Below, piece after piece: positions 1,952 through 53,692 of a DNA stretch of 55,177 nt (the first letter of the stretch is position 1; each line of letters opens with the position of its first letter). The notes beneath the pieces were generated by a model. That model saw only the letters and a list, made by a program, of their open reading frames with translations. It had not been told where the DNA came from and did not search any database. The DNA comes from Pseudolabrys sp. (GTDB taxonomy: Bacteria > Pseudomonadota > Alphaproteobacteria > Rhizobiales > Xanthobacteraceae), in the NCBI GenBank assembly GCA_019247925.1, contig JAFBAG010000342.1, forward strand, positions 1 through 55,177, given 5' to 3'. The translations under genes were made by a program, and so were the position numbers.

Positions 1952-2611
1952 TTAGAAGCGGTAGTTCACGCCAGCGCGAACGACGTGGCTGTTGAAGCTG
2001 ACATTGTTCGGCGGCGGGCCGCAGGTGCCGCAGGTGAAGCTGCCGAGATCGACGTAGAGGTATTCGGCCTTCACACTCCAGGCCGAGAAGATTGCGTATT
2101 CAACACCCGCGCCGATCGTCCAGCCGAAACGGGTGGAGCTGGTCGTGCCGCCCGGAGCGATTGCTTCGAGGCCGCCAAAGGCCGCGCCGGCAGTCAGGTA
2201 GGGCAAGAAGCTGCCCCAGCCGCCGTAGCCGATACGGGCGCGCGCGGTGCCGAGCCAGCGATCGCGCATTTCGCAGGTGCCGCCGGTGCAGCCCAGGCTG
2301 TCTTTCATGCCGGAGTACGAGAGGTCACCCTCGATGCCCCAAACGATCGAGCCGGTCTGAATGTTGTAGCCAATCGTGCCGCCGGCGAGGAAGCCAGCCG
2401 GCTTCGGCGCGACGCCAGGCGCCGGAGCTTCCCAGTTGGAGCGGCCGAAGCCGTAGCCGATGACGGCGCCAACGTAGAGGCCGCTCCAGCTGAAAGCCGC
2501 GGGCGCGACATAAGACGGCGCTTTATAGCGAGGCAGGTCAGCGGCGTTCGCCGCCAACGGAGCCGCAAGCAGTGCGGCAAAAATTCCGAGTGTGATCTTT
2601 CTCAAGGTCAT
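1952..2611 (-). CDS. Omp25/RopB-family outer membrane beta-barrel protein
   Basis: Signal peptide ending ANA-ADLP, FSWSGLYVG, GWTIGAGVEY, KAEYLYVDLG and C-terminal NYRF. Start moved to ATG 2611. Confidence 0.92.
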   Translation of the reverse strand: MTLRKITLGIFAALLAAPLAANAADLPRYKAPSYVAPAAFSWSGLYVGAVIGYGFGRSNWEAPAPGVAPKPAGFLAGGTIGYNIQTGSIVWGIEGDLSYSGMKDSLGCTGGTCEMRDRWLGTARARIGYGGWGSFLPYLTAGAAFGGLEAIAPGGTTSSTRFGWTIGAGVEYAIFSAWSVKAEYLYVDLGSFTCGTCGPPPNNVSFNSHVVRAGVNYRF

Positions 2612-2727
2612 GTTTCGAACGGTCCTTCCGCCTGGTCTACTAGCGCGGCGGGAGATCGCGAGATCAACCCGGACGCATGGTTTGCTTTGGCGCAACATGC
2701 GCCTTTCCGCACTCTGACCGGGTTTGG

Positions 2728-2746
2728 TTAATTGCAGGTTAACCAT
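2728..2746. promoter_or_regulatory. CtrA binding box
   Basis: TTAA-ttgcagg-TTAACCAT is an exact TTAA-N7-TTAAC match, about 120 bp upstream of the porin start. Confidence 0.8.
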
Positions 2747-2793
2747 GACAGGCCGCGGTATTCGCGTGCCTTTTTGCATCGATGACTCGGCGC

Positions 2794-3852
2794 TCAGCCG
2801 CGCGCGCCGAGCAGTGATTCTATCGAGATTCGCGACCACGCCGCGCTGCGCGCGCGGAACGCCAGATAGGATTCGTGGATCTTGCGTGTCGCGGCGTCCC
2901 GCGCCGCGAGTTCGGCGACAATATCGCGCGCCTGCGTGCGCGCGGCCGCGACGAGATCATTGGGAAATGCGCGCAGCTGCACGCCGTGCTGTCCGGTCAG
3001 GGCCTCCAATGCCAACGCATTGAGCCGCTCCATCTCGGCGAGTGCGTAACTGGCTTCGGCCGCGCAGGCATGCGCGACAATGCCCTTGAGCGCATCATCG
3101 AGTGCGCGCCATGCGCTCAGCGCGACGATGCATTCGCCGGTGCCGTTCGGCTTGTTGAACCCGGGATAATAGTAAAACGGCGCCACGCGATAGAGGCCGA
3201 GCGCGATGTCGGACCCAGGACCGACGAATTCCGCGCCATCAATGACGCCGGTTTGCAGGCTGGTGAGGATCTCACCCGGCGGCGTGGTCTGCGGCGTCGC
3301 GCCGAGCCTGCGGTAAACCTCGCCGCCGAGGCCGAGCGAACGCAACTTGAGGCCGCGCAAATCGGCTAGGCTGCGGACTTCGCGGCGAAACCAGCCGCCC
3401 ATGCAAACGCCGGTATTGCCCCCCATGAATGGCTTCACGCCAAACGGCGCATAGAGATCGTCCCACATCTGCTGGCCGCCGCCGGCATCGATCCACGCGA
3501 CGTGCTCGGCCGGCGTCAGTCCGAACGGCACCGTGGTGAAGAAGGCCGCCGCCGGCGTTTTGCCTTGCCAATAGAACGACGCGGTGTGACCGATTTCGGC
3601 CACGCCATTGCCGACCGCGTCGAGCACTTCGAAGGCGGGGACGAGTTCACCCGCCGCATGCACCGAAATCTCGAGGCGACCGTTCGACAGCGTGCGAATG
3701 CGCTCGGCGATACGTTCTGCCGACATTCCCGGTCCCGGCAGGCGCTTGGGCCAGGACGTCACCATGCGCCATTTCAGTGTTTGCGCGCGCGCGACAGCCG
3801 GCGCAGCGACGCTCAGCCCAAGCACAGCGACAAATTTGCGGCGTGTCGTCAT
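2794..3852 (-). CDS. TRAP transporter substrate-binding protein (TakP-like), Tat signal
   Basis: MTTRRKF twin-arginine signal, WRMVTSWP, YWQGK, MGGWF, GLKLR and DGAEFVGP motifs. ATGA overlap with the thiD stop. Confidence 0.9.
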   Translation of the reverse strand: MTTRRKFVAVLGLSVAAPAVARAQTLKWRMVTSWPKRLPGPGMSAERIAERIRTLSNGRLEISVHAAGELVPAFEVLDAVGNGVAEIGHTASFYWQGKTPAAAFFTTVPFGLTPAEHVAWIDAGGGQQMWDDLYAPFGVKPFMGGNTGVCMGGWFRREVRSLADLRGLKLRSLGLGGEVYRRLGATPQTTPPGEILTSLQTGVIDGAEFVGPGSDIALGLYRVAPFYYYPGFNKPNGTGECIVALSAWRALDDALKGIVAHACAAEASYALAEMERLNALALEALTGQHGVQLRAFPNDLVAAARTQARDIVAELAARDAATRKIHESYLAFRARSAAWSRISIESLLGARG

Positions 3853-4661
3853 GGCGTTCTCCAATGCGCATGAAAATGGTGCAGCGGTCCGCTGCCCTGC
3901 CCGATCGCAAGATCGTCGGCAGCCGCGATCGCACCCGAGACATATTCCTTGGCGCCGCGCACGGCGTCGATGAGGTTGACGCCTTTGGCGAGACCCGCGG
4001 CGATCGCCGATGATAGCGAGCAGCCGCTGCCATGGGTGTTTTTGGTCACGATGCGCTTCGTAGCGAAGCGGATGCTGGGAGCCAGCCGCCGGCCGACCAG
4101 AATATCGACGCTCTCGGCGCCCTGCGCGTGTCCGCCTTTCATGAGGACATTCTGCGCGCCTTCGGTGAGAAGAGACCACGCCTGCCCTTCCATCTCCCGC
4201 TCGTCGCGCGCCAGCGACGCGCCCGTGAGCGCCGCGGCTTCGGGCAGATTGGGTGTGATGATCAGCGCAAGCGGAAATAGCTCCTCGCGCAATGCGGCAA
4301 TGGCGTCGTCCTGAAGGAGTTTGTCGCCCGAAGTCGCGACCATCACCGGGTCAAGCACCATGTTCTTTGCGTTGTGCCGTTTGAGACCATCGGCCACAGC
4401 CTCGATGACGCCGCGGTTCGAGAGCATGCCGATCTTCACGGCATCGACCTTGAGATCGCTAAAAACCGCGTCGATCTGGGCGTTGACGAAATCCGGAGGC
4501 ACGTCGTGGATGCCGCTGACGCCTTTGGTGTTCTGCGCCGTCAATGCGGTGATGACGGAAGCGCCATAGACCCCGAGCGCCGAGAACGTCTTCAGGTCAG
4601 CCTGAATCCCGGCGCCGCCGCTGGAGTCGGAGCCTGCGATGGTCAGTGCGATTGCGGTCAT
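3849..4661 (-). CDS. thiD: Hydroxymethylpyrimidine/phosphomethylpyrimidine kinase
   Basis: LTIAGSDSSGGAGIQADLKT, VKIGML, ITPNLPEA and THGSGC motifs. Confidence 0.97.
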   Translation of the reverse strand: MTAIALTIAGSDSSGGAGIQADLKTFSALGVYGASVITALTAQNTKGVSGIHDVPPDFVNAQIDAVFSDLKVDAVKIGMLSNRGVIEAVADGLKRHNAKNMVLDPVMVATSGDKLLQDDAIAALREELFPLALIITPNLPEAAALTGASLARDEREMEGQAWSLLTEGAQNVLMKGGHAQGAESVDILVGRRLAPSIRFATKRIVTKNTHGSGCSLSSAIAAGLAKGVNLIDAVRGAKEYVSGAIAAADDLAIGQGSGPLHHFHAHWRTP

Positions 4662-5311
4662 CGCGCTCGCCTTTCCTTCAGCGCGCCGTCGATGATGCTG
4701 CGCAGTGCGCGCGCGGCCTGCGCCGGGTCTGCTGCCATCGACAAGGCGGAAATGACGGCAACGCCGTCGGCGCCCGCCGCAATCACCGGCGCGGCATTGC
4801 TGGCATCGATACCGGCGATGGCGGTCACCGGCATTTGCGGGGCGCGTCTGCGTAGCGCGTCGAGAATTTTTTTGAAACCGTCGAGGCCGACCGGCTGCGG
4901 ATTATCCTTCGACTGGGTCAGAAACACGCCGCCGATCGCGCAATAGTCGAGCTGCGCGATCGGCGCCGCTTTCGCTTCTTCGACCGTCTTGAGGCTGAGG
5001 CCGATGATGGCCTTGGGCCCGAGCAGCCGGCGCGCATCGGCGGCATCCATGTCGTCCTGGCCAATGTGCACGCCCTCCGTGCCGGCGGCGAGCGCGACAT
5101 CGACGCGGTCATTGATGACCAGCGGCACGCCGCTAAGCGCTGCGCGGATCTCGCGCGCCTCTGCGATCATGCGGCGCGTATCGCCGTGCTTGTCGCGTAG
5201 CTGAACGAGCGTGCAAGCGGGCGCGATCAGCCGTGCAATGGCAGCCAGCGCGCGGCCATTGGCGCGCTCGGGATCGAGCAAGGCGTAAAGGCTGAGGTCG
5301 ACGGGGTTCAT
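4658..5311 (-). CDS. thiE: Thiamine-phosphate synthase
   Basis: VQLRDK, INDRVDVALA, GVHIGQDD, TQSK and AIAGI motifs. Confidence 0.95.
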   Translation of the reverse strand: MNPVDLSLYALLDPERANGRALAAIARLIAPACTLVQLRDKHGDTRRMIAEAREIRAALSGVPLVINDRVDVALAAGTEGVHIGQDDMDAADARRLLGPKAIIGLSLKTVEEAKAAPIAQLDYCAIGGVFLTQSKDNPQPVGLDGFKKILDALRRRAPQMPVTAIAGIDASNAAPVIAAGADGVAVISALSMAADPAQAARALRSIIDGALKERRAR

Positions 5312-6078
5312 GACACTTTAGCCCGCTTGGCCAATGTCGCCTCGTCGAGATTGAACAGCGCGTCGAGAATGTTCACTGCGAATGAACCCGGTCCCCGCGC
5401 GCTTTCGCCGGCGATCTCTCCGGCGATACCGAGGATCAGCAGCGCCCCGGCGCTGGCGGTGAAGGCGTCCTTGCCGCTCGTGAGGCAGGCTGCCGTGAGC
5501 GCGGAGGCCGCGCAGCCCATTGCGGTGACCCGGGCCATATGCGGATGGCCATGCGAAAACGAAATGACCTGCGCGCCGTCGGCGACCCGGTCCGTCGCTC
5601 CAGACAGCGCGATCACCGTGCCGCTTTGCGCCGCAAACGCACGCATGGCCGCGGGCTCCGGATCGCCGCCGAGTGCCTTGAGTTCGGCCGCGTTCAATCG
5701 CACCGCGGCGGGCTTCTTCGCCAGCAGCGAGCGGGCGAAACCGGCGCGTGCGCTGGAACGATCAATGAGTACGGGGTCGAGCACCCAAGGCTTACCCTGA
5801 TGCCGGGCAACCTCGAGAGCGATTAAAACCGCTTCGCGGCGTTCGCCGTCGAACGTCCCCAGATTGACGAGCAGCGCGTCGGCGCTCTCGACAAAGGCGC
5901 CGATCTCCGCCGCCGAGATCGTCATCGAGGGCACGCAGCCCGCCGCGAGCAGGACATTGGCAGTGAAGGTTTGCGCTACGGAATTGGTGATGCAGTGGAT
6001 ACGCGGGGCGCGCTCGCGCAACGCGGCGAGAAGCTCGCCCGCAGCACGCGGAAGGTCGGCAGTTGTGGCAGCGCGCAT
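5308..6078 (-). CDS. thiM: Hydroxyethylthiazole kinase
   Basis: IHCITNSV, ANVLLAAG, NLGT, WVLDPV and VTAMGC motifs. Start moved to ATG 6078, just 3' of the riboswitch. Confidence 0.93.
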   Translation of the reverse strand: MRAATTADLPRAAGELLAALRERAPRIHCITNSVAQTFTANVLLAAGCVPSMTISAAEIGAFVESADALLVNLGTFDGERREAVLIALEVARHQGKPWVLDPVLIDRSSARAGFARSLLAKKPAAVRLNAAELKALGGDPEPAAMRAFAAQSGTVIALSGATDRVADGAQVISFSHGHPHMARVTAMGCAASALTAACLTSGKDAFTASAGALLILGIAGEIAGESARGPGSFAVNILDALFNLDEATLAKRAKVS

Positions 6079-6081
6079 CTC

Positions 6082-6172
6082 TGCTCCCTCCGCCGGCATG
6101 ACCCGGATCAGGTTCGTTGGGTTGGCCTTGCGGCCTCTCAGCCCGGCACCGCCGGACACCCCACGAGATTGC
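6082..6172 (-). ncRNA. TPP riboswitch (THI element)
   Basis: Minus strand reads GGGGTGTCC...GGGCTGAGA...ACCC..CGAACCTGATCCGGGTCATGCCGGCGGAGGGA, the canonical TPP aptamer motifs, directly upstream of thiM. Confidence 0.95.
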
Positions 6173-6251
6173 AGCCGAAAGCTAGTGCGCGTGGGCCTGC
6201 CTTGCAAGCGCCGCGCCTTTTTGCTGGATTTGCCAGATTGAGGAAAGCGAA

Positions 6252-6491
6252 ATGAAGCCGTTCTTCGTCCAGATCAAATGCCAGCTCGGCAAATCGTATG
6301 AGGTGGCGAACCGCCTCGCCGAAGCCGAAATCGCCTCCGAGGTCTATTCGACCGCGGGTGAATTCGACTTGCTCGTGAAGTTCTATGTCGATGACGGCGT
6401 AGACATCGGCCATTTCGTCAATGAAAAGGTCCAAAGCGTGCCGGGTATTCAAGACACCCGCACCATCATCACCTTCAAGGCCTTCCAGTAA
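6252..6491 (+). CDS. Stand-alone Lrp/AsnC ligand-binding (RAM) domain protein
   Basis: 79 aa with EVYSTAGEFDLLVK and VPGIQDTRTII; no HTH; GAGGA RBS. Confidence 0.88.
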   Translation: MKPFFVQIKCQLGKSYEVANRLAEAEIASEVYSTAGEFDLLVKFYVDDGVDIGHFVNEKVQSVPGIQDTRTIITFKAFQ

Positions 6492-7421
6492 TCAGGTGGG
6501 CGCGCGCGGTCCTGCTTCCTCGAGCCTGCGCTTGAGGCCGAGCTGGCGTTCGCGCCAGATCACGAACAAGCCGGCACCCGCGACGATCGCCGCGCCCACA
6601 TAAACCAGCGCGGTCGGCAATTCGCCGAATAGCCAGAAGCCGAAAATCAGCGCCCACAGCATGGCGCTGTAGTCGAACGGCGCCAGCACCGAGGCGCTGG
6701 CGAAGCGATAGCTTTCCGTCAGGATCAGATGGGCGATGCCGCCAAGAATGCCCATCGATACCAACATGGCGAGTTCGCCCCAGCTCGGCGTGTGCCAGGC
6801 AAACGGCAGCGTCACCGCGCCGGCGATGGCGCATGACAGGGAGAAATAAAACACGATCGATGGCGTGGTCTCGCTCGAGGTCAGCCGGCGTGTCTGAATG
6901 ACGGTACCGGCATTAAACAGCGCCGCGAGGAGCGCGAATATCGCGCCCGCCGTCGCCACGGCAAGGCCGGCGCCGCTGCTGTAATGGCTGAAGTCGAAAT
7001 GCGGGACCAGCATGACGATGACGCCAGTGAATCCGACAACGACGGCGCTCCAGCGGTAGATGCGCACCCGCTCCTTCAAAATCCAGGCCGCGAGCGCGAC
7101 CGTGATGAGCGGCGAGGCAAACGAGATAGCGGTCGCGTCGGCGAGCGGCAGGCGCGCGAGCGAAGCGAAATTGGAGAACATTCCGACGACGCTCAAAGTG
7201 CCGCGGCCGATATGGCCGAACGGCCTGTTGGTGCGTACCGCCTGCATCAGCTCGCGCCGAAAGGCGTAAATGACGACCACCGGAACGATCGCAAACAGCG
7301 CGCGGAAGAAGACGATCTGACCGACCGGCGCGACCTGCCCCATGATCCGCACCATCGCCTGCATGATGGTGAAAAGCAGCGCGGAGGCGAGCTTTAGCCC
7401 GATGGCTTTGAAGAGATTCAT
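6492..7421 (-). CDS. EamA/DMT family transporter
   Basis: About 10 hydrophobic segments; LPLADATAISFASPL, ILKERV and ASVLAPFDY motifs. Confidence 0.92.
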   Translation of the reverse strand: MNLFKAIGLKLASALLFTIMQAMVRIMGQVAPVGQIVFFRALFAIVPVVVIYAFRRELMQAVRTNRPFGHIGRGTLSVVGMFSNFASLARLPLADATAISFASPLITVALAAWILKERVRIYRWSAVVVGFTGVIVMLVPHFDFSHYSSGAGLAVATAGAIFALLAALFNAGTVIQTRRLTSSETTPSIVFYFSLSCAIAGAVTLPFAWHTPSWGELAMLVSMGILGGIAHLILTESYRFASASVLAPFDYSAMLWALIFGFWLFGELPTALVYVGAAIVAGAGLFVIWRERQLGLKRRLEEAGPRAPT

Positions 7422-42108: not shown

Positions 42109-42302
42109 GCGTCGACTCCCCGCGCGCGTTAACCATATTCAAAAACCGCGGGAACACCCGTCGTTTCGCTCTTGAAAGCGCGGGCCGATCAGAAAATTAT
42201 CGGCGCGTCGTTAACCTTCTTTCGCGGACGGGCCTGATGGGAAGGAACCGCCGCGTTAGAAAGCGCACGGAGGCTGTCGGCGCGAATGCCGCATTGAGGA
42301 CG

Positions 42303-42896
42303 ATGAAAAGGGTCATTGTCACTTCGCTGAGTCTGCTCGCTGTAATCTGCACTTCGCCCGCGCTGGCGACGCCGCAGAAGTCCGTCGAGCGTTTCGCGAA
42401 TACTGTGCCGGCCGAAACCATCTCGCGCAGCCGTTCCGACGCCGCCGAACAGGCAGCGTCCGTGCCGGGCGCCGGCGCTGTTCTGCTCGAAGCCTTGCGT
42501 TGGCGCGGACGCACCGCCAAGCAGCTTGGCCTGCCGTCGCAGCTCTGGTGCGCGGATTTCATGAACTTCGTCATGCGCAAGGCCGGCGGTAAGGGCACCG
42601 ACTCCCGCGCTGCGCGCTCGTTCCTGCAATACGGCAAGAAGCTCGACGGTCCGCGCGTCGGCGCGATTGCCATCTTCACCCGCAAGGGTCCGAACAACGG
42701 CCATGTCGGAATCGTCCGCGGCACCGATGGTGACGGCAACCCCATCGTGATCTCGGGCAATCATGGGCCGACCGTGGTGCAGTCGATGTATCCGAAGCAC
42801 CGCGTGCTCGCGTATGTCATGCCGCCCGACTACGTGCTCGAAGACATCGCCAGCACCGCGCGCGCGCAGGCGATGCAGAACACCGGCCGCAATTAA
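42303..42896 (+). CDS. Secreted CHAP/NlpC-like protein (TIGR02594-type)
   Basis: GAGGA RBS, signal peptide, LWCADFMN, ARSF, GHVGIV and ISGN motifs. Confidence 0.8.
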   Translation: MKRVIVTSLSLLAVICTSPALATPQKSVERFANTVPAETISRSRSDAAEQAASVPGAGAVLLEALRWRGRTAKQLGLPSQLWCADFMNFVMRKAGGKGTDSRAARSFLQYGKKLDGPRVGAIAIFTRKGPNNGHVGIVRGTDGDGNPIVISGNHGPTVVQSMYPKHRVLAYVMPPDYVLEDIASTARAQAMQNTGRN

Positions 42897-43058
42897 TCTC
42901 TCTTAAGCGACGCCGTTAACGCGCGCAGCCCCCGCGCGTGCGGATTAATGTTAACTCCGGGCCAATCACCCCCGCGTGATGGCAGCCGCTAAGTTCGCCC
43001 CCAAACACAAAAGCGGCGCGGCGATTTGCCGAGCGTCCGCTTGACGGGGCAAGGCGGA

Positions 43059-46000
43059 ATGTTCGTACGGCGTCCATACGTTGTACTGAGCGCGGCGATC
43101 ACACTGGCAACGATCCTGCCGGCGGCGAATGCCGTTGCGCAATCGCAGGCGTGTATCAGCAAGGACGCGTCGCCCGACGCCCGTATTGCCAGCTGCACGA
43201 ACACGATCGGCGACAAGAAAGCCACCAAGATCGCAAAGGCCTCCGCGCATCTGGCGCGCGCCAATGCCTATCGCGAAAAGGGCGACGTCGAACGGGCGCT
43301 TGCCGACTACGCCGAGTCAATCAAGCTCAGCCCGAAGCCCGAAGCCTATCTCGACCGCGGCATGCTGCTGCGCGACCAGGGCCAGCTCGAGCGCGCCGCG
43401 CAGGATCTCGAACAGGTGGTGCGGCTCGCCAAGACCAATTCGGCGGCGATGAATGCTCTCGCGCACATCTATTACAACCAGCGCGACTACGACCGCGCCA
43501 TTGCGCACCTCAACACGACGCTCAAGCTCAATCCAAACTATGCCGTCGCGCTCTACAACCGCGGCATGGCCTTTCGTTCGAAGGGCGAGCCCGATCGCGC
43601 CGTGCCGGATTTCGACCGCGCGATCAAGATCAATCCCAATGACGCCGCGTCGTGGCACAGCCGCGCCCTCGCCTACCGCGACATGCGCGACTACGAGCGC
43701 GCCATTCAGGATTTTGACCAAGCGATCAGGCTGACGCCCAATTTCATTCTGGCGCTCAACGATCGCGGTATCGCCTATGCTTCCAAGGGCGAGGTCGAGC
43801 GCGCCATCCAGGACTTCGATCAGGCGATCCTGCTCGATCCACGCGATGCCCTTGCCTACAACAACCGCGGCAACGCCTATCGCAACCGCGGCGAGATCGA
43901 GCGCGCCATCAAAGACTACGACCAGGCGTTGCTGCTCGATGGCAACTACGTGCTCGCTTATTACAACCGCGGCATGGCGTTCTTCGATCGCCGTCAGTAC
44001 GACCGCGCCATCAAGGACTTCGATGAGGCCGTCAAGCTCGATGCCAAATATGCACTCGCGTATTACGACCGCGGCCTGACCTATTATCACAAGGGCGATT
44101 TCGAGAAGGCCGTGGCTGACCTGAGTCAGGCGATCAAGCTCGATCCCAAGGATGGACTTTCGTTCTACAACCGCGGCATCGCCTATACCGCCAAGGGGGA
44201 CGCCGAGCGCGCCATTGCCGACTTCGATCAGGCGGTCCGGATCGATCCGAAAAACGCCCTCGCCTATTTCAATCGCGGCCTTGTTCTGCACGGCAAGGGC
44301 GACGACGACCGCGCAATCGCCGACTTCACGCAAGCGCTGCGGGTCGACGGCAAAAGTGCGCAGGCTTATTACCACCGCGGCCTCGCTTACCGCGGCAAGG
44401 GAGACCTCGACCGCGCGCTCGCCGACTTCGACCAGTCGACCAAGCTCGATCCCAAGCAGGCCGCCGTCTATTTCGAGCGCGGCAATGTGTACGCCGACAA
44501 GCGCGATCCGGATCGCGCGATCGTCGACTACAATATGGCCATCAATATCAAGCCGGACTACGTCGCAGCCTTCAATGCGCGCGGTCAGGCCTACAACGCC
44601 AAAGGCAACTCGGACCGCGCGGTCGCGGATTTCGACCAGGCGGTTCTGCTTGATCCCAAGAGTGCGCTCGGGTTTTCCAATCGCGGCGCCGCCTATCTCG
44701 CCAAGCGCGACTTCGAGCGCGCTGCGGCGGATTTCGAGCGGGCGATCAAGGCCAATCCGAACTTCGCGGGTGCCTACCTCAACCGCGGCCTGGCGTTCAA
44801 GGAATTACGGGAGTTCGCAAAGGCGGTGGAGGATTTCACCGCGGCGATCAAGTTCGATCCGAAAAGCGCCGCGGCCTACAACGCGCGCGGCTATTCCTAT
44901 CGCAATCTCGGAGACTATGACCGCGCCTTCGCCGATTTCGACCAGGCGCTCAAGCTCAACGCCTCGTTGCCGGAGGCCTATTTCAACCGCGGCGTCGCGC
45001 GCTATGAGCATCGCGACTACGAGCGCGCCATTGCCGACCTGTCGCAGGCCGTGCGGCTGGAGTCGCGTGATCCTTCGATCTTCCACGCGCGAGGTCTCGC
45101 CTATCGCGAAAAGCAGGACTACGAGCGCGCCATCGCCGACTTCGACCAGACGCTGAAGCTCAACCCGAAGCTGACCGGGGCCTATGTCGACCGCGGCAAT
45201 GCCTATCAATACAAAGGCGATGCCGAGCGCGCGGTGAAGGATTATGACGCCGCGATCAAGCTCGATCCCAAATATGCCGCCGCCTTCACCGAGCGCGCCA
45301 ATACTTTCGCGGCGCGCGGCAAGATCGAGCGCGCGCTGCAGGACTACGATCAGGCGATCAAGTTCAATCCGACCTATGCCGGCGTGTTCATCAGCCGCGC
45401 CCAGCTTTTCCATCGCCGGGGCGAAAATGCCAAGTCGCTCGCCGATCTCGACCAGGCGATCAAGCTCGATCCGAATTCGGCCTTCGCGCTCAATCAGCGC
45501 GCGCAAATCTATCAGGACCGCGGCGAAACCGACCGCGCCATCGCAGATTTCAGCCAGGCGATCAGAGCCAATCCGCGCTTCGAAACAGCGCTCAACGGCC
45601 GCGGCATGGCTTTCAAGAGCAAAGGCCAGCTCGAACGCGCGGTGGCCGATTTCGACCAGGCGCTGACGATCAATCCGAACTTTGCGGAAGCCCTGGTGAG
45701 CCGCGGCGAGACGCTGGAGCAGATCGGTTATCACGACCGCGCGCTAAAGGACCTTGACCAGGCCCTGCGGCTCAATCCGAACAACGCGGAAGGCTACAAC
45801 GTGCGCGGCCGCATCTACGCCGCCAAGCGCGACTTCGACCGGGCGCTGAGCGAATTTGCCCGCGCTTTGCAGATCGATGGCAAGCTCGCCTCGGCCTATA
45901 ACGGCCGCGGCCTCGCCTATCGCCTTAAGGGCGACCATGAGCGCGCGATTTCGGATTTCAGCGCGGCCGCGCGGCTAGACCCCAATTACGCGATGGCCTT

Positions 46001-49000
46001 CAGCAATCGCGGCAATGTCTATTTCGACCGCCGCGAATACGACCGCGCCATCGCGGATCTGACCCAGGCGATCAAGCTCAATCCCGGCCACGTGCGCGCG
46101 TATTACGACCGCGGCATCGCTTATGGGGCCAAGGGCGACGTCGAGCGGGCCATCGCCGATTTCGGCGAAGCGATCAAGCTGGATCCGAAGAACGCCATCG
46201 CCGTCAACAATCGCGGCGTCGCCTATCACAGCAAGGGCGACACGGCGCGCGCCGCGGCAGACTTCGACCAGGCGATCAAGCTCAACGAGTCCTACTCGAT
46301 GGCCTATTACAACCGGGCCAATCTGAACGTCGAGAAGCGCGACTATGATCGCGCGATCGCGGACTTTTCGCAGGCGATCAAGCTCAATGCGAGGGACTAT
46401 TTCGCCCTGCACGACCGTGGCGTCGCGTTCTACCAGAAGCGCGACTACCAGCGCGCCATCGAGGACTTCGAGCAGGCGATCAAGCTCAAGCCGGACTTCA
46501 GCGTCTCGACCAATGCGTCCGACGACGATACGCGCAACCAGCGCGGCTATGATCGCGACAATCCGGACATCAGCCCGCCGATCAAGGTCAGCCCGGTGTT
46601 CAGCCTTGCCTATAATGACCGGGGCATCGCCAGTGCCGCGAAGGCCGATTATGCGAAGGCGATCGAAAGCTTCGACCGCGCCATCAAACTCAATCCAGGC
46701 CTCGCGGTCGCGCACTACAACCGCGGCAATGCCCTGTTCCAGAAGAACGAGGTCGAGGCGGCGCTGGCAAGTTACAGCAAAGCCATCCAGCTCAATCCCA
46801 AGGACGCCAACGCGCATCATGATCGCGGCGTCGCCTATTACGTGCGCGAGGACTATGACGCGGCAATCGCCGATTTCGACAAATCGCTGGCGCTCGACGG
46901 GAAAAACGCGGCGGCGCATTACAACCGCGGCATCGCCTATTTCGAGAAGCGCAATTACGACCGCGCCATCGAAGGCTTCGAGCGCGCGATCAAGCTCGAT
47001 CCGAAGCTCGCGGCCGCCTACAGCGCGCGCGGCAACGCCCTCGCGAGCCGCGGAGAATTCGAGCGCGCGATCACCGATCTGAGCCAGGCGGTGAAGCTCA
47101 ATCCGAATGACGCGATGGCGCTCACGGATCGCGGCATCGCCTATGGCTTGAAGGGCGAAAGCGAGCGGGCGCTGGCTGATTTTGACGCGGCGATCGCGCT
47201 CGACGGCAAATATGCGCCGGCCTTCAACAATCGCGGCATTGCTTATGCCTTCAAGGGCCAGGGCGACCGCGCGCTCGCCGATTACGACCAGGCGATCAAA
47301 CTCAATCCCGGCTACGCGCTCGCCTTCTACAACCGCGCCAATGCCTATTACGACCGGGGCGACTATGCGCATGCGATCGCGGATTACGACAAGGCGGTGA
47401 AGCTCAATCCCGGTGACGCGCTCGCCTTCAGCAACCGGGGCAACGCGTACGCCAACCGCGGGGAGTTCGACCGCGCGCTCGCCGATTACAACCAGGCGCT
47501 GAAGCTCAATCCGGGCTACGCCCAGGCCTTCAACAATCGCGGCGTGGTCTTTGGCGCCAAGGGCGATGGCGACCGGGCGATCGCCGACTTCGACCAGGCA
47601 AGCCGGCTCGATCCGCAGCATGCGCTCGCCCCCTACAATCGCGGGCTCGCATTGCGCGACAAGAACGAGATCGACCGCGCCGTCCAGGCTTTCGACCAGG
47701 CGCTCAAGGCCAACCCTGCATACCTCGCCGCGCTCTATAGCCGCGGCGGCGCTTATAGCCTCAAGCGCGATTATGACCGCGCCATCGCCGACTACGGCGC
47801 CGCGCTCAAGCTCAAACCGAACTTCGCGCCGGCGGTCTATGACCGCGCTTTGGCCTACGGCATCAAGGGCGACCATGCCCACGCGCTCGCGGATTTCGAC
47901 GAGGCGATCAAGCTCGACCCGAAAAATGCGCTGGCTTGGTTCAACCGCGGCGTCGCCAGCCGCAACAGCGGTGATCTCGACAAGGCCATTGCCGACTTCT
48001 CCGAGGCGCTCAAGCTCGACGGCAAGCTCGCGCAGGCCTATTTCGAACGTGGCGCCGCGCTCGCCGCCAAGCGCGACAGCGACCGCGCCATCGCCGATTT
48101 CGACCAGGCGGTGCGGCTCAAGCCGAATTTCGAGGCGGCCTATTATCAGCGCGCCGTGATCCACCGCGACCGCCGCGACTATGACCGCGCCATCAGCGAC
48201 CTCACGCAGGTGATCCGGCTAGAGCCCAAGAGCACCGCGGCTTACGCGCAGCGTGGTCTTTCTTACCGCGACAAGGGCGACACCGAACGCGCCGCTGCGG
48301 ACTTCGATCAGGCGGCGCGGCTCGACGGCCAGTCCGCCGCCGCCTTCGTCAATCGCGGCACGACACTCGGCATGCGTGGCGAATATGACCGGGCGATCGC
48401 CGACTTCGACCAGGCGATCAAGCTCGATCCGAAAAACGCCGTCGCGTTCAACAATCGCGGCTTCAGCTATCGCAACAAGAGCGATCTTGATCGCGCCGTC
48501 AGCGATTTCGACGCGGCGCTCAAGATCAATCCCAACTACGCCACAGCGCTGTTTAATCGGGCCGGCGTGTTCTACGAAAAGCGCGAATACGACCGCGCCA
48601 TCAAGGATTTCGATGCCGTGATCCGCGGCAACCCGAACATGGCGTCGGCTTATAATGCGCGCGGCCTTGCTTACGACGGCAAAGGCGACGCGAGCCAGGC
48701 GGTCGCCGATTTCGGCAAGGCAATCCAGCTCGATCCCAAGAACGCCCTCGCCTACAACAACCGCGGCTTCGCCTACCGCAGTAAGGGCGATTTCGACCGC
48801 GCCATTGCCGATTACACCCAGGCTTTGGCGCTCAATCCGAAATACGCGCTGGCGCTCTACAATCGCGGCATTGCGCACTACGACAAGCGCGACTTCGACA
48901 AAGCCATGGCCGACATGAACGCGGCGCAGAAGCTCAATCCGAGCTACGGCAATGCGTTCTACGATCGCGGCATCACGTTTTACGACAAGCAGGATTACGA

Positions 49001-49343
49001 CCGCAGCGTCGCCGGCGGAGAGCTCCTCGCCGCGGCCAAGGCGGAATTTGTGCTGAATGTCGGCGCGGGCGGCAGCTTCGAAAATCGCCGCGACGGCGAT
49101 CGCATCATCCAAGACCCGAGCCAGGCGATCCGCTTCAATCACTACAACAGCTTTGCCTTTGCGCCGCAAAACGAAACCAATCCGCCGGTGGAAGCTGCGC
49201 CGCCGCCGGCTGCGGTGCCCATCCCCGCAATGGTCCTCCCGCCGATGCCGGAAGCCATGCCGGAGTTTGAAGCCGCTTCGGTCGCCGCCGCCGCGTCTGC
49301 GGCCAATGTCCCGCTGCCCCTCGCACGCCCGCGCAAGCACTAG
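43059..49343 (+). CDS. Giant secreted TPR-repeat protein (2094 aa, 58 repeat units)
   Basis: Signal peptide, Cys-pair cap, tandem 34-aa units of consensus A.AYxNRGxAYxxKGDYDRAIADFDQAIKLDP, and a Pro/Ala-rich tail. Confidence 0.95.
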   Translation: MFVRRPYVVLSAAITLATILPAANAVAQSQACISKDASPDARIASCTNTIGDKKATKIAKASAHLARANAYREKGDVERALADYAESIKLSPKPEAYLDRGMLLRDQGQLERAAQDLEQVVRLAKTNSAAMNALAHIYYNQRDYDRAIAHLNTTLKLNPNYAVALYNRGMAFRSKGEPDRAVPDFDRAIKINPNDAASWHSRALAYRDMRDYERAIQDFDQAIRLTPNFILALNDRGIAYASKGEVERAIQDFDQAILLDPRDALAYNNRGNAYRNRGEIERAIKDYDQALLLDGNYVLAYYNRGMAFFDRRQYDRAIKDFDEAVKLDAKYALAYYDRGLTYYHKGDFEKAVADLSQAIKLDPKDGLSFYNRGIAYTAKGDAERAIADFDQAVRIDPKNALAYFNRGLVLHGKGDDDRAIADFTQALRVDGKSAQAYYHRGLAYRGKGDLDRALADFDQSTKLDPKQAAVYFERGNVYADKRDPDRAIVDYNMAINIKPDYVAAFNARGQAYNAKGNSDRAVADFDQAVLLDPKSALGFSNRGAAYLAKRDFERAAADFERAIKANPNFAGAYLNRGLAFKELREFAKAVEDFTAAIKFDPKSAAAYNARGYSYRNLGDYDRAFADFDQALKLNASLPEAYFNRGVARYEHRDYERAIADLSQAVRLESRDPSIFHARGLAYREKQDYERAIADFDQTLKLNPKLTGAYVDRGNAYQYKGDAERAVKDYDAAIKLDPKYAAAFTERANTFAARGKIERALQDYDQAIKFNPTYAGVFISRAQLFHRRGENAKSLADLDQAIKLDPNSAFALNQRAQIYQDRGETDRAIADFSQAIRANPRFETALNGRGMAFKSKGQLERAVADFDQALTINPNFAEALVSRGETLEQIGYHDRALKDLDQALRLNPNNAEGYNVRGRIYAAKRDFDRALSEFARALQIDGKLASAYNGRGLAYRLKGDHERAISDFSAAARLDPNYAMAFSNRGNVYFDRREYDRAIADLTQAIKLNPGHVRAYYDRGIAYGAKGDVERAIADFGEAIKLDPKNAIAVNNRGVAYHSKGDTARAAADFDQAIKLNESYSMAYYNRANLNVEKRDYDRAIADFSQAIKLNARDYFALHDRGVAFYQKRDYQRAIEDFEQAIKLKPDFSVSTNASDDDTRNQRGYDRDNPDISPPIKVSPVFSLAYNDRGIASAAKADYAKAIESFDRAIKLNPGLAVAHYNRGNALFQKNEVEAALASYSKAIQLNPKDANAHHDRGVAYYVREDYDAAIADFDKSLALDGKNAAAHYNRGIAYFEKRNYDRAIEGFERAIKLDPKLAAAYSARGNALASRGEFERAITDLSQAVKLNPNDAMALTDRGIAYGLKGESERALADFDAAIALDGKYAPAFNNRGIAYAFKGQGDRALADYDQAIKLNPGYALAFYNRANAYYDRGDYAHAIADYDKAVKLNPGDALAFSNRGNAYANRGEFDRALADYNQALKLNPGYAQAFNNRGVVFGAKGDGDRAIADFDQASRLDPQHALAPYNRGLALRDKNEIDRAVQAFDQALKANPAYLAALYSRGGAYSLKRDYDRAIADYGAALKLKPNFAPAVYDRALAYGIKGDHAHALADFDEAIKLDPKNALAWFNRGVASRNSGDLDKAIADFSEALKLDGKLAQAYFERGAALAAKRDSDRAIADFDQAVRLKPNFEAAYYQRAVIHRDRRDYDRAISDLTQVIRLEPKSTAAYAQRGLSYRDKGDTERAAADFDQAARLDGQSAAAFVNRGTTLGMRGEYDRAIADFDQAIKLDPKNAVAFNNRGFSYRNKSDLDRAVSDFDAALKINPNYATALFNRAGVFYEKREYDRAIKDFDAVIRGNPNMASAYNARGLAYDGKGDASQAVADFGKAIQLDPKNALAYNNRGFAYRSKGDFDRAIADYTQALALNPKYALALYNRGIAHYDKRDFDKAMADMNAAQKLNPSYGNAFYDRGITFYDKQDYDRSVAGGELLAAAKAEFVLNVGAGGSFENRRDGDRIIQDPSQAIRFNHYNSFAFAPQNETNPPVEAAPPPAAVPIPAMVLPPMPEAMPEFEAASVAAAASAANVPLPLARPRKH

Positions 49344-49387: not shown

Positions 49388-50110
49388 ATGAACCGTCAGA
49401 CCTATCGAGATCGAATGCGCGCGGTGCTGACGGCGGTGGAGCGCCGGGTGCTGGCGCGGCTCGATACGCCTGGCAAAATCCAGGATTTCCTCGACCGCAT
49501 GCCGATCAATTTCGAGCGCGGTGGGGACACCCATATGTCGCCGCGCCGGATGCTCAAGGCGCGGCTGGCGCACTGCTCGGAAGGCGCTCTGTTTGCAGCT
49601 GCCTGCCTGCTCTATCACGGCAAGCCTGCTTATCTGATGGACTTGCGCGCCGTTCCGAAAGATCAGGATCACATCGTGACGTTGTTTCGCGATGGCGCCT
49701 ATTGGGGCGCGATCAGCAAGACCAATCACGCGGTGCTTCGTTATCGCGACGCGATCTATCGCTCGCCGCGCGAACTCGCCATGTCCTATGCGCACGAATA
49801 TTTCCTGTGGCGCGACGGCCGCAAGTCGCTGCTATCTTTCTCGCGGCCGTTTTCGCTCAAGCGCTTTGCGCCGGCACTCTGGTTGACCGCGACCGACGAG
49901 CTCGATTGGCTGATTACCGCACTCGACGATTCACCGCATGAATCTCTTGCGCCAGCGCCATATCTTCGCAAGCGACGACGCGCCTCGACCCTTGAACGCA
50001 AAATGATGGACTACTCGGAGTGGGCCGAGCCGCGGGTGAAGAACCCGAATGCCTTGCGGCAGCCGCGCGTGAAGCGGCGCGTCAGCCGCCCTTCCAGTCG
50101 GCGCGGATGA
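49388..50110 (+). CDS. Hypothetical protein, putative transglutaminase/papain-like fold
   Basis: AHCSEGALFAA, DQDHIV, WGAISKTN and LRYRDAIY motifs; ATG at 49388 with GAG upstream. Fold is inferred. Confidence 0.7.
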   Translation: MNRQTYRDRMRAVLTAVERRVLARLDTPGKIQDFLDRMPINFERGGDTHMSPRRMLKARLAHCSEGALFAAACLLYHGKPAYLMDLRAVPKDQDHIVTLFRDGAYWGAISKTNHAVLRYRDAIYRSPRELAMSYAHEYFLWRDGRKSLLSFSRPFSLKRFAPALWLTATDELDWLITALDDSPHESLAPAPYLRKRRRASTLERKMMDYSEWAEPRVKNPNALRQPRVKRRVSRPSSRRG

Positions 50111-51764
50111 ATTCGGCGACACGTTCGCCGATCATGATGGAAGGAATATTGGTGTTGGCGCTGGGCGCCTTTGGCATCACCGAAGCATCGGCGACGCGAA
50201 CGCCGCTCACCCCATAGACCCGACAGCGGGGGTCGACCACCGCCAGGGGATCGCTCTCGCTCCCGATCGCACAGGTGCTGGTGGGGTGAAACATCGCCCC
50301 GGTCGAAGCGAGAATCTCCTCGTCCGCGATCGGAAAGCGTTCGCGGCTATCGAAAATGATGCGGCCGGGCTTGAGCGCCAGCCCCAGCATGGCCCGGCGC
50401 AACGCAGCCGGGCTGCGCAGCAACGTTGCCGCCGCGGCGGCTTTTGCCCCTCCGCTCACGCCGCGCCCGTTATAGAGCCGCAGCGGCGGATCGCGCGGCA
50501 ACAGATAGGCGTCCTCGACCGTGCCCCGCAAAGCAGGATCGCAGATCAGGCTTTCGGCCATGCGCGCGACGATCAGCATGCGGGCGCTGTCGCGCGGGTC
50601 AGACAGCAGGCGCTGATTGACGATCGGCGCCACGAGCGGATCGGCCGAGACCAAGTTGACCTCACCGCGCGAGAACGGGGCGTAAAGCGCCGCCGCCACC
50701 ATGCCCATTCGCGTGCCGAAGGCACGGTCACTCACCCTGCCGCCGAAATAGATGAACAGGTCGCCGGCCGGACAATTCTCGACTTGCGAGGAGATGCGCA
50801 GCCCGGTCATAGCATAATGGCGCTGCTCCGGCCGCAGACGCGATGATGGCGCAAGGCCAAGCGCGAAATGCAACTGCGTGTGGTTCTGATAGTTCTTGCC
50901 GACCCCGCGGCGGTCCGCGACAGGAGGAATGCCGAGACGTTGCAAGGTATCGGCAGGACCTATCCCCGAGCGCAGCAGCACCGCCGGCGAATGCACGCCG
51001 CCGGCCGAAACGACGATTTCTCTGGCAGCGATGATGCGGCTCGTCCCGCCGCGCACGACAACGACGCCGGCCGCGCGGGTGCCTTCAAAGACAATGCGCT
51101 GGACGGATGTTTCGCTCAGAATTGTGAGGTTCGGCCGCGCCCGCACCGCCGCAGTGAGATAGCAGCGCGCGCTGGAAGCGCGCTCATCGTCATGGCTCAT
51201 CGGCGTCGCGAAGAAGCCGTCCTGCGCAGTCTCGTTGATGTCTCCATGGCTGACGAGGCCGCGCGCCTTCACCGCCTCCTCGATGCGGCGCATATGCGCG
51301 GGCCAGGCATCGCGTGGCACGCGCCGCACGATGTTCGGCCCATCGGTGTTTTGCGCCCCCCGCGGCAGATCGAGATCGCGCGTCATCGCGCGAAAATGCG
51401 GCAGCACGTCACGCCAGCCCCAATCGCGCGCGCCGGCCTGCTCCCAGGCATCGTAATCGCTGGGCAGGCCGCGCAGCGCGATCATGCCCATGACGCTGGA
51501 GCCGCCGCCCATGATCTTGGGTTGGGGAAAAAGCCGCGCCGCCTCGCCCTCGGCGAAGACGCTGGTCAGGCCGGACCAGAAATAACTTGGATTGAAGTAG
51601 GCCGCCGGGAACGTGTCGCGAATGTCGCGCGGCACCGCGCCGGGCGGCGTGTCCTTGCCGGCTTCGATCAGCAGCACCTTGATCGAAGGATTTTCGGAAA
51701 TGCGCGCCGCAACCGCGGCGCCGGCCGAGCCGGCGCCGATGACGATGATGTCAGCCTGGTCCAT
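50082..51764 (-). CDS. GMC family FAD oxidoreductase (HMF oxidase/aryl-alcohol oxidase-like)
   Basis: GAGSAG, LLIEAG, GGGSS, LLRSGIGP, FHPTST and VADASVMP...ANTN motifs. Confidence 0.92.
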   Translation of the reverse strand: MDQADIIVIGAGSAGAAVAARISENPSIKVLLIEAGKDTPPGAVPRDIRDTFPAAYFNPSYFWSGLTSVFAEGEAARLFPQPKIMGGGSSVMGMIALRGLPSDYDAWEQAGARDWGWRDVLPHFRAMTRDLDLPRGAQNTDGPNIVRRVPRDAWPAHMRRIEEAVKARGLVSHGDINETAQDGFFATPMSHDDERASSARCYLTAAVRARPNLTILSETSVQRIVFEGTRAAGVVVVRGGTSRIIAAREIVVSAGGVHSPAVLLRSGIGPADTLQRLGIPPVADRRGVGKNYQNHTQLHFALGLAPSSRLRPEQRHYAMTGLRISSQVENCPAGDLFIYFGGRVSDRAFGTRMGMVAAALYAPFSRGEVNLVSADPLVAPIVNQRLLSDPRDSARMLIVARMAESLICDPALRGTVEDAYLLPRDPPLRLYNGRGVSGGAKAAAAATLLRSPAALRRAMLGLALKPGRIIFDSRERFPIADEEILASTGAMFHPTSTCAIGSESDPLAVVDPRCRVYGVSGVRVADASVMPKAPSANTNIPSIMIGERVAEFIRADWKGG

Positions 51765-51803
51765 CGATTGAAGCTACTGCGCCGGAAGAAGACGCCGCAA
51801 ACT

Positions 51804-53087
51804 CTATTTCAAGACGACGCTGGGCAACCACAGTGTGAGCGCCGGGATGTAGGTGACCAAGGCAAGCACGATGATCATCGGAATATAGAAAATCAGGATC
51901 GAACGCGACACCGCTTCCATCGATACTTTGCCGATCGCGCAGCCAACCACCATGGTCGGACCAACCGGCGGGGTCAGCAGCCCGATGCCGAGGTTGAGAA
52001 TCATGATGATACCGAAATGCACCGGATCGATGCCGAAGGTCTTGATCACCGGCAGAAAGATCGGCGTGCAGATCAACAGCATCGGTGCGAGATCCATGAA
52101 CGTGCCGAGCAGCAACAGCAAGATATTGATCCACAGCAGGAACATGTATTTGTCGGAGGAGATGTCGATGAAGAACTGCGTCGCGATCGCCGGAATACGC
52201 AGGATCGCCATCATGTAGCCAAAAGCTATCGAGAACCCGATCATGATCATGACCATGCCGAGCGTGCGCGTCACGCGTCCGATCAGTGCGGGCAGCTCGC
52301 TCCACTTCACGTCTCGATAGACGAACATCGTCACCAGGAAGGCGTAAACGCACGCGACCGCGCCGGATTCCGTCGGGGTGAAGACGCCCGACAGAATACC
52401 GCCGATGATGATGACGACGGTCACCATGCCCCAGATAGCGTCGACGAAGATCTTGCCGACATTGCGTAGCGGCACCACCTCGCCCTTCGGGAAGTTGTCA
52501 CGGTGCGCGATGATGAGAACCAGGATGATCAGCGACAGGCCGAGCAACAGCGCGGGAATGATGCCGCCCATGAAGAGATGGCCGACCGAGATCGTTCCAC
52601 CGGCAGCAATCGAGTAGATCACCATGTTGTGCGAAGGCGGCACCAGAAGCGGCTGCAGTGAGCCGGAAATCGTGACGTTGACCGCAAAGAGCCTCGGATA
52701 GCCCTCCTTGATCATCTGGGGGATCATCACCGAACCCACCGCGGCGGTATCGGCGACAGACGAGCCTGAGATACAGCCGAACATGGTCGATGCGAGAATG
52801 TTGACCAGCGCCATGCCGCCGCGGATCGCGCCGACAAAAACCTTCGCGAGGTTCACCAAGCGCTCGGCCATGCCGCCGACCGCCATGATCGCTCCCGCCA
52901 GCACGAAGAACGGAATCGCCAGCAGCGAAAAGCCGCTCATACCGCCTGCCACTTTGAGCATCACAGCTTCTAGCGGAATGCCGGTGTAGAGCGCCGCCAT
53001 GATCGCGGCGAGGCCGAGTGCATAGGCAACCGGCAAGCCGAGTAGACAGACAATCGTAAAGCCGCCGATGAGGATGAAAATTTCCAT
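51804..53087 (-). CDS. dctM: TRAP transporter large permease
   Basis: LLAIPFF, FGCISGSSVAD, FTPTES and GLLTPPVG motifs. Confidence 0.95.
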   Translation of the reverse strand: MEIFILIGGFTIVCLLGLPVAYALGLAAIMAALYTGIPLEAVMLKVAGGMSGFSLLAIPFFVLAGAIMAVGGMAERLVNLAKVFVGAIRGGMALVNILASTMFGCISGSSVADTAAVGSVMIPQMIKEGYPRLFAVNVTISGSLQPLLVPPSHNMVIYSIAAGGTISVGHLFMGGIIPALLLGLSLIILVLIIAHRDNFPKGEVVPLRNVGKIFVDAIWGMVTVVIIIGGILSGVFTPTESGAVACVYAFLVTMFVYRDVKWSELPALIGRVTRTLGMVMIMIGFSIAFGYMMAILRIPAIATQFFIDISSDKYMFLLWINILLLLLGTFMDLAPMLLICTPIFLPVIKTFGIDPVHFGIIMILNLGIGLLTPPVGPTMVVGCAIGKVSMEAVSRSILIFYIPMIIVLALVTYIPALTLWLPSVVLK

Positions 53088-53095
53088 GACTGATC

Positions 53096-53614
53096 CTACT
53101 CGGTCGTCAGGCCGCTGACCGTTTCGGCCTCCGGCTCATGGAAAAATTTCTGGGTCATCATCCGCTCAAGGATGAACAGGATGGTAAGGCCCCCGGCGAT
53201 CGGGATAGGCGCATAGGAGAGGCCGACCGACATAATCGGCAGCTCGGCAATCCACTGAAACCAGGTCGCCTCAACCAGTTTGATGCCCCACCAGAGCATG
53301 AAGAGGTTGGTGGCCAGCATGCAAATTTCGAGCACCCAGCCGAGCGCCTGGCGCGCGTTGCCTTTGAGGAAGGTCGGCAGGACGCCGACGCCGATATGAA
53401 GATATTCGCGGTAACAGACGATCGCCGAGAGAAATGACAGGACGATCATCAGGAGCGTTGCAATCGGCTCCGGCCATGACGCGGCGCTGTTGAGCACAAA
53501 GCGGGTAAAGACCCCATAAGGCACGATCAGCGTGATCACGACGAGGCATGTCCCCGCGATGATCAGGCAGGCACGATGGATCGCGTCCATCGCGCGGCTG
53601 TATTGAGCCAGCAT
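53096..53614 (-). CDS. dctQ: TRAP transporter small permease
   Basis: Four TM segments; TRFVLN..SWPE and HIGV motifs. Confidence 0.92.
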   Translation of the reverse strand: MLAQYSRAMDAIHRACLIIAGTCLVVITLIVPYGVFTRFVLNSAASWPEPIATLLMIVLSFLSAIVCYREYLHIGVGVLPTFLKGNARQALGWVLEICMLATNLFMLWWGIKLVEATWFQWIAELPIMSVGLSYAPIPIAGGLTILFILERMMTQKFFHEPEAETVSGLTTE

Positions 53615-53632
53615 GGCAGTCCCCCCGATTGC

Positions 53633-53671
53633 AAAAAGGCCGGCCAGTGTCCCGTCGGGCCGGCCGGCCTT
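53633..53671 (-). terminator. Terminator-like stem-loop between dctP and dctQ
   Basis: aaggccggcc(53636-53645)/ggccggcctt(53662-53671) with a U-tract on the minus strand. Confidence 0.65.
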
Positions 53672-53692
53672 CGTTCGTCGCCCCGCTAAAGC

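Follow-up and report, generated by a model that had tools for sequence, protein, structure and literature searches.

The TRAP binding protein TakP (SmoM) of Rhodobacter sphaeroides (2HZK/2HZL) is secreted and binds pyruvate via Arg177, Tyr100 and a cation that is held by Gln156, Glu214, the Trp215 carbonyl and Glu240 (PMC1839085). Related TakP-type structures have been solved (7UG8, 5CM6, 4PET and 4YIC/4YZZ). Of these, 4YIC presumably holds Ca2+ together with picolinate, a heteroaromatic 2-carboxylate like carboxythiazole (cHET). The uptake of vitamin B1 and its vitamers is served by transporters of other kinds, such as the ABC importers ThiBPQ and ThiXYZ (dependent on a binding protein and TPP-regulated), which carry thiamine or pyrimidines. 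ThiU we take to be an MFS-type predicted thiazole transporter. Its gene ends a TPP-regulated thiM/thiD/thiE operon in Haemophilus influenzae (thiMDEU; PMC3766115 supplement), while ThiW is a predicted thiazole (ECF) transporter component (PMC11223231 supplement). Orphan binding proteins, encoded apart from a possibly shared membrane unit, have been described in the TTT family (Bordetella Bug proteins, AdpC) and are not B1-related in that account, which also considers TRAP ligands hard to predict from sequence (PMC5812351). As for the thiazole half of the vitamin, Ostreococcus shows a ThiM-dependent use of cHET, ThiE accepts cHET-P as a substrate, sub-pM cHET sustains growth of an E. coli thiG mutant, and the high-affinity cHET transporter is described as being of 'unknown sequence identity' (PMC5899164).

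Here we analysed a 55,177-nt stretch of DNA from Pseudolabrys sp. (hereafter the window, meaning the whole stretch), in which the gene of a TRAP binding protein (SBP) belongs to a thiamine-salvage operon. The SBP resembles TakP in fold and in being a secreted TRAP protein, and differs from it in its cation site and in being encoded within a TPP-riboswitch thiM operon that has no dctQM. In common with thiU, its gene ends a TPP-regulated thiM/thiD/thiE operon; unlike the membrane proteins ThiU and ThiW, it encodes a periplasmic PF03480 binding protein that needs a separate permease. The locus is comparable to thiBPQ and thiXYZ in pairing an SBP with TPP regulation, but the SBP is of another family and neither an ATPase nor an ABC permease adjoins it. 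Moreover, it is encoded apart from a membrane unit in the manner of the orphan TTT proteins, although it is of the TRAP and not of the TTT family.

Operon organization and riboswitch control

The operon lies entirely on the minus strand and reads TPP riboswitch-thiM-thiE-thiD-SBP:

6066..6173, minus strand: TPP riboswitch aptamer (Rfam RF00059, 61.9 bits, gathering score 54.3)
5308..6078, minus strand: thiM, hydroxyethylthiazole kinase (NF006830, 224.5 bits, cut-off 180; PF02110)
4658..5311, minus strand: thiE, thiamine phosphate synthase (TIGR00693, 174.4 bits, cut-off 145.1)
3849..4661, minus strand: thiD, HMP/HMP-P kinase (TIGR00097, 339.1 bits, cut-off 205)
2794..3852, minus strand: TakP-like TRAP SBP of the thi-linked subfamily, 352 aa (PF03480, NF037995)

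The initial annotation had described the four genes as chained by 4-nt overlaps under a TPP riboswitch, with no dctQ/dctM following, and both statements are borne out: the thiM/thiE, thiE/thiD and thiD/SBP junctions are all ATGA overlaps (3/3), the RF00059 aptamer is the sole Rfam match in the whole window, and the next gene 3' of the SBP encodes an outer-membrane beta-barrel (2611-1952, minus strand), with neither dctQ nor dctM beside the SBP. The overlaps suggest that the SBP gene would form one TPP-regulated transcription unit with thiM-thiE-thiD. It has an SD-like GGAGA of its own ahead of the ATG. A sigma-70 scan of positions 2400-6600 returned no promoter-like site (shuffle mean 0.5), the operon's own promoter being equally missed. 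As the 3' P1 strand (GAGAU) of the Rfam-aligned aptamer takes in the beginning of the thiM AUG, and as an SD-like GGAGGGAG tract directly precedes GAGAU and the thiM start codon, control is likely translational, in that ligand binding would directly mask thiM initiation. Folded by free energy, the aptamer does no better than shuffled sequences (z 0.13), as may be the case when no ligand is bound; the aptamer call rests on the Rfam score.

Several further features of the window were recorded. The stretch that separates the SBP gene from the outer-membrane gene (2640-2793, minus strand) folds better than shuffles (z -3.5); it matches nothing in Rfam, and no terminator was called on the minus strand. 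An EamA/DMT transporter gene (6492-7421, minus strand) lies upstream of the riboswitch, as it does in many relatives. Positions 50082-54691 (minus strand) hold a full dctP-dctQ-dctM TRAP operon with a GMC oxidoreductase gene after it, and the SBP of this operon is only ~27% identical to the thi SBP. A 2105-aa protein made mostly of TPR repeats is encoded at 43026-49343 (plus strand) and preceded by a CHAP-domain gene (42237-42896) as well as by tonB-receptor/exbB/exbD genes.

The binding protein and its ligand site

By profile the SBP is a TRAP (DctP-type) protein (PF03480, 153.7 bits against a cut-off of 23.4, E 9e-45; NF037995, 60.3 against 50); PF03480 and two DctP models were its only matches at E<=0.001, and no homology was found to ThiB, ThiY, ThiW, ThiU, ThiV, CytX or ThiT. 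The structural model (pLDDT 84.8), in which residues 1-22 are disordered and, in relation to the helix-swapped dimer of TakP-type receptors, a long C-terminal helix is present, matches TakP-type SBPs with Foldseek TM scores of 0.87-0.90 at 34-41% identity, the best PDB relatives being 7UG8, 4YZZ/4YIC, 5CM6 and 2HZK. Three features of the coding sequence concern secretion and binding:

3784..3852, minus strand: putative twin-arginine-like signal peptide (TRRKFV ... ARA|Q), by inspection
3340..3342, minus strand: R171, carboxylate-binding Arg (TakP Arg177), by alignment to 2HZK, with the role taken from PMC1839085
3142..3165, minus strand: PGFNKPNG, residues 230-237, the signature of the subfamily; its K234 aligns with the TakP cation ligand Glu240

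In the alignment, TakP Arg177, Tyr100, Gln156, Glu214, Trp215 and Glu240 correspond to R171, Y94, C150, E208, F209 and K234, so that the Arg, the Glu and, in this copy, the Tyr are shared, while Gln156 and Glu240 are replaced, as is Tyr99 (by Phe). Furthermore, the residues I47, P243 and V245 of the hydrophobic side-chain pocket of TakP are exchanged for P41, G237 and G239, with N236 and E240 of the SBP invariant.

The SBP falls into a TakP-like subfamily characterized by the motif PGF[NH][KE]PNG. In a tree of 122 SBPs from fetched loci, the 96 with Asn-Gly at positions 236-237 form one clade relative to 26 motif-less relatives, with modest support (FastTree 0.79; SH-aLRT 69.6, the latter on 69 of the 122 sequences). 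Across this clade R171 and E208 (each in 96/96), N236, G237 and E240 are invariant. The Q+E pair of cation ligands, on the other hand, is retained in 8/96 members as opposed to 25/26 of the relatives without the motif (Q being kept in 26/26 of these and E in 25/26), and K234 occurs in 81/96 members, never alongside Q150. Judged by its sequence, the site is not a standard 2-oxo-acid site, as two of the TakP cation ligands are replaced. The amine of K234 may take the place of the bridging cation, and the pocket would be larger and polar enough for a ring with a distal hydroxyl. By parsimony, Lys at position 234 is the derived state and Glu the ancestral one, with three changes on the full FastTree and two on an IQ-TREE fast tree of 69/122 sequences; a convergent (repeated) origin of K234 is not established. 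With regard to the initial annotation, the retention of the carboxylate-binding Arg of its GLKLR region is upheld by the alignment of R171 with TakP Arg177; it had overlooked the replacement of the two cation ligands.

Linkage to thi genes and the missing half of the vitamin

The neighbourhood of orthologues had been proposed at the outset as a check, in which an absence of thi genes would speak against a role in B1 salvage, and the subfamily was found to be thi-linked across families and gene orders. Thi genes adjoin 78 of the 96 motif-bearing loci and none of the 26 motif-less ones; the 96 wide loci are mostly from Xanthobacteraceae (two of them from one genome) and, being kin, are not independent, so that p-values calculated for such counts are too strong. 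Within the genus, 31/36 genomes match the SBP at E below 1e-100 and thiD stands directly upstream of it in all 29 fetched loci. Seven orthologues (51-58% identity) from seven other families all reside in thiM operons, six of them with an Rfam TPP match, while a motif-less paralogue (46% identity) lies outside any thiM operon. Since thiD is upstream in 29/29 genus loci and 7/7 distant orthologues are in thiM operons, the linkage is not due to chance. The best 80 GTDB loci include 62 that are thi-linked, and in even draws over class and phylum the linkage holds for 10/10 top-scoring motif loci and 0/32 motif-less ones (equal 1.5-kb flanks).

Where the flank was long enough (70 linked loci), thiM was found in 67 loci, thiD in 64, thiE in 60 and, by means of a profile built from eight Rfam hits, a TPP-like element in 64, which makes thiM the most constant neighbour of the SBP although gene order varies. 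TPP-thiM-SBP, thiM-SBP and TPP-SBP-thiM-thiE units occur, and the linkage persists through at least six gene orders. A relaxed Rfam search returned no TPP element at five thi-linked loci (L052, L126, L195, L196 and L197, of which L195 has almost no upstream DNA). In 300 alphaproteobacterial genomes, 30 carry thiM and nine the SBP (eight found by pattern and one by profile); all nine carriers have thiM, and 21 of the 30 thiM genomes have no match to the SBP motif. Subfamily records extend to Gammaproteobacteria (Competibacteraceae, Arenicellales), and an estimated ~2,500 GTDB stretches match the subfamily patterns, a figure that may include non-members. Variant arrangements include TPP-thiC-thiM-thiE-SBP (L054 1633-6295), a ThiY-type pyrimidine-binder gene ~1.5 kb downstream of the SBP in the same cluster (L195 4940-5914) and, in a genome without a motif match (G201), an apparent thiM-thiE fusion in which one long frame matches both (L250 4927-6621, minus strand).

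We inspected which part of the B1 pathway the carriers lack. The genome of origin (90.8% complete) has thiL, thiC under a second TPP switch, and five NMT1-family proteins; no thiG, thiS, tenA or over-cut-off thiB was found in it. At the level of the genus thiG is present in 3/36 genomes and thiC in 18/19, and it is therefore the thiazole half that is missing, the members appearing to be thiazole auxotrophs that make their own HMP. Among distant carriers thiG is found in 2/16 and thiC in 4/16; as 12/16 lack thiC, gene content outside the genus does not narrow the ligand to thiazole. The idea that thiG is always absent was rejected; 10/32 thi-linked genomes of one comparison set also possess it.

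We consider it rather probable that the SBP binds some thiazole precursor, and give a probability of roughly 0.55 to the more specific reading in which it is a cHET receptor that delivers to a DctQM encoded elsewhere and thus supplies the missing thiazole half. The invariant Arg argues for an anionic ligand, and the anionic thiazole directly usable by ThiM and ThiE is cHET, which would make it the candidate of choice. The suggestion of the initial annotation that the SBP may capture cHET or another acidic precursor gains support from the conserved thi linkage and from a genus that is mostly without thiG and has thiC. As E. coli uses cHET and its TPP regulon, as given in the supplement of PMC3766115, lists no SBP of the thi-linked TRAP type, the SBP would be one cHET receptor and not the sole one.

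The thiM linkage and the absence of thiG would fit equally well if the SBP took up a different thiazole, i.e. HET, HET-P/cHET-P or an oxidised form such as 4-methylthiazole-5-acetic acid; with two cation ligands lost, the site has changed and its Arg and Lys pair could also hold a phosphate, and oxidised acids have been described as possible salvage substrates (PMC11223231). We nevertheless regard this as unlikely, given that HET offers no anion to the invariant R171, that phosphorylated thiazoles would not need ThiM, that methylthiazole-acetic acid needs a reductase (none is encoded in the operon), and that such derivatives are described as having failed to rescue a C. glutamicum thiG mutant.

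In 18/96 loci (L089, L100, L102, L106-L113, L116, L117, L120, L122, L123, L125 and L131) the SBP is found without thi genes or riboswitch, and these form one nested Xanthobacteraceae clade (support 0.997). Their SBPs are 72-82% identical to the query and have the same pocket residues; the genes, often placed after a LysR gene, are surrounded by LysR, dehydrogenase and FAH-hydrolase genes, the FAH/SDR neighbours being in the same synteny as downstream in the window. A TPP riboswitch of their own was sought by nhmmer and found in none of the 18 unlinked copies, and five thiMED operons of this lineage are without both the SBP and a TPP element, the EamA/DMT gene remaining with thiMED where the SBP leaves. 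This synteny, together with the binding of 2-oxo acids by the closest solved relatives, would suit an SBP that is a mere passenger, namely a carboxylate or keto-acid receptor of the FAH-hydrolase/dehydrogenase genes, acquired by the thi operon and without a role in B1. Such a capture is quite improbable: by parsimony the unlinked state is derived, having arisen by one loss inside the linked clade; the linkage persists over the six or more gene orders and many families while motif-less relatives are never linked; the counterparts of Q156 and E240, both required by TakP to bind keto acids via a bridging cation, are replaced; and thiM is present elsewhere in 15/18 of the unlinked genomes. The split amounts to one rearrangement, but the SBPs of this lineage may bind a different ligand or a wider range of ligands. 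The 18 loci count against the cHET reading, as do the thiG found in 11/18 of their genomes and in 10/32 of the thi-linked ones, the 21/30 thiM genomes without the motif and two loci at which thiD adjoins the SBP and thiM does not.

A pyrimidine precursor (HMP, FAMP or a pyrimidine carboxylate) or intact thiamine as the ligand would agree with the adjoining thiD in 64/70 linked loci, with two loci (L060, L245) in which the SBP and thiD occur without adjacent thiM, with a tenA gene after the SBP in L191 (7098-7808) and with the 12/16 distant carriers that lack thiC. We judge this to be very improbable, since the genus makes HMP (thiC 18/19) yet retains the SBP, since thiM occurs without thiD in six loci from five lineages, and since an invariant Arg and a frequent Lys suit an anion and not the cationic thiamine.

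A candidate membrane partner and its implications

The genome of origin contains 13 DctP and 18 DctM matches, and none of the 96 loci has dctM within 2.5 kb of the SBP (in 82 of them the downstream flank reaches 2.5 kb or more). The initial annotation had placed the TRAP membrane unit elsewhere in the genome, and there is now a concrete candidate for it: a dctQ-dctM pair at G000:C72:1-1430 (dctQ 915-1430), the C-terminal half of whose dctM is probably the piece at the end of C345 (C345:7679-8240), as both match the same 463-aa orthologues and have no sequence overlap. No TakP-type SBP adjoins this dctQM in 20/20 wide loci, and in other families its orthologues (53-61%) stand behind sister-clade SBPs. 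Its presence agrees with that of the SBP in 20/21 genus genomes (17 with both and three with neither, the latter including G017, which is 98% complete and thiG-positive), the discordant genome (58% complete) having dctM only; it was also found in 8/8 tested genomes of the unlinked lineage. On the negative side, the candidate dctM is missing in 9/26 distant carriers, and neither of the two dctM queries matched anything in G244 and G367 (99% complete). The pair (L203, L309) is conserved in the genus and often found beside nitrile hydratase genes, an SDR and an acyl-CoA dehydrogenase.

Modelled as a three-chain complex, the SBP and DctQM orthologues of G010 scored 0.67 as compared to 0.03 for the best control, above a mark reached by 116/157 solved and 2/215 mismatched pairs; runs agreed in at least 84% of contacts, with a partner pLDDT of at least 86. 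Given that solved relatives of TRAP systems exist and that near cousins also reach the mark, the model speaks for compatibility and not for specificity; its score may stem from resemblance to TRAP systems of known structure. Moreover, a classical DctP is encoded a few kb downstream of the candidate dctQM, within the same cluster, in most genus genomes (discordant with it in 4/29), and could be its alternative SBP. The dctQM at C72/C345 is thus a candidate partner only. Another dctQM, at C245, was rejected as a general partner, a near-identical orthologue (89-90%) being present in only 2/14 genus genomes; at that site (G000:C245, L204) one dctQM converges on two tandem canonical TakP-like SBPs, with up to three in related loci (L304), suggesting shared permeases. 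That the SBP binds a thiamine-related ligand and works without any TRAP permease, as a periplasmic store or with another membrane protein, would accord with the lack of a nearby dctM, with G244 and G367 and with the EamA/DMT gene often found upstream, but is hardly to be expected given the 20/21 co-occurrence, the passing complex model and a DMT gene that lies outside the riboswitch unit and stays behind when the SBP leaves.

On the assumption that the cHET reading is accurate, Tat export would carry the SBP to the periplasm, where the carboxylate of cHET would form a salt bridge with R171, the amine of K234 replacing the Na+/Ca2+ of TakP, and where a widened pocket (I47 to P, P243 to G, V245 to G) and its invariant N236 and E240 would accommodate the ring together with its hydroxyethyl arm. 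Ion-coupled import would then proceed via the dctQM on contigs C72/C345; ThiM would yield cHET-P, ThiC and ThiD would provide HMP-PP, ThiE would join the two and ThiL would form TPP, which in turn would close P1 over the thiM start and shut the translationally coupled operon. One extension of this scheme we put forward with more reserve: the subfamily may be a dedicated high-affinity cHET receptor in a TRAP system split across the genome, with the SBP under the TPP riboswitch, the ancestral dctQM kept elsewhere without an SBP of its own, and Lys in place of the bridging metal ion. In that case Pseudolabrys and similar alphaproteobacteria of soil and water would be thiazole auxotrophs that depend on cross-fed cHET.

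The observed feature is genuine and conserved. Profile, fold and Arg identify the protein as a TRAP SBP, one that departs from TakP in the cation site and in the lack of an adjacent dctQM. Among the top results of our literature searches (subscription journals and bioRxiv supplements lying outside their scope) no link between TRAP and thiamine was found. The term 'TRAP' is absent from the main texts of PMC11223231, PMC12442306 and PMC10881298 and from the supplements covered (eight of PMC3766115 and three of PMC11223231), as is 'Thiamin' from the text of the TRAP review PMC5812351 that we covered; the gene lists of B1 surveys contain thiM and, in the parts covered, no TRAP entry (PMC10881298; supplements of PMC3766115 and PMC11223231). 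As cHET supports growth at picomolar levels through a transporter of 'unknown sequence identity' (PMC5899164), the SBP would bear on that gap. If the cHET reading is true, it would add a vitamin-precursor class to the substrates of TRAP transporters, offer an example of a TRAP system working in trans, and provide a marker for thiazole cross-feeding as well as a possible cHET biosensor.
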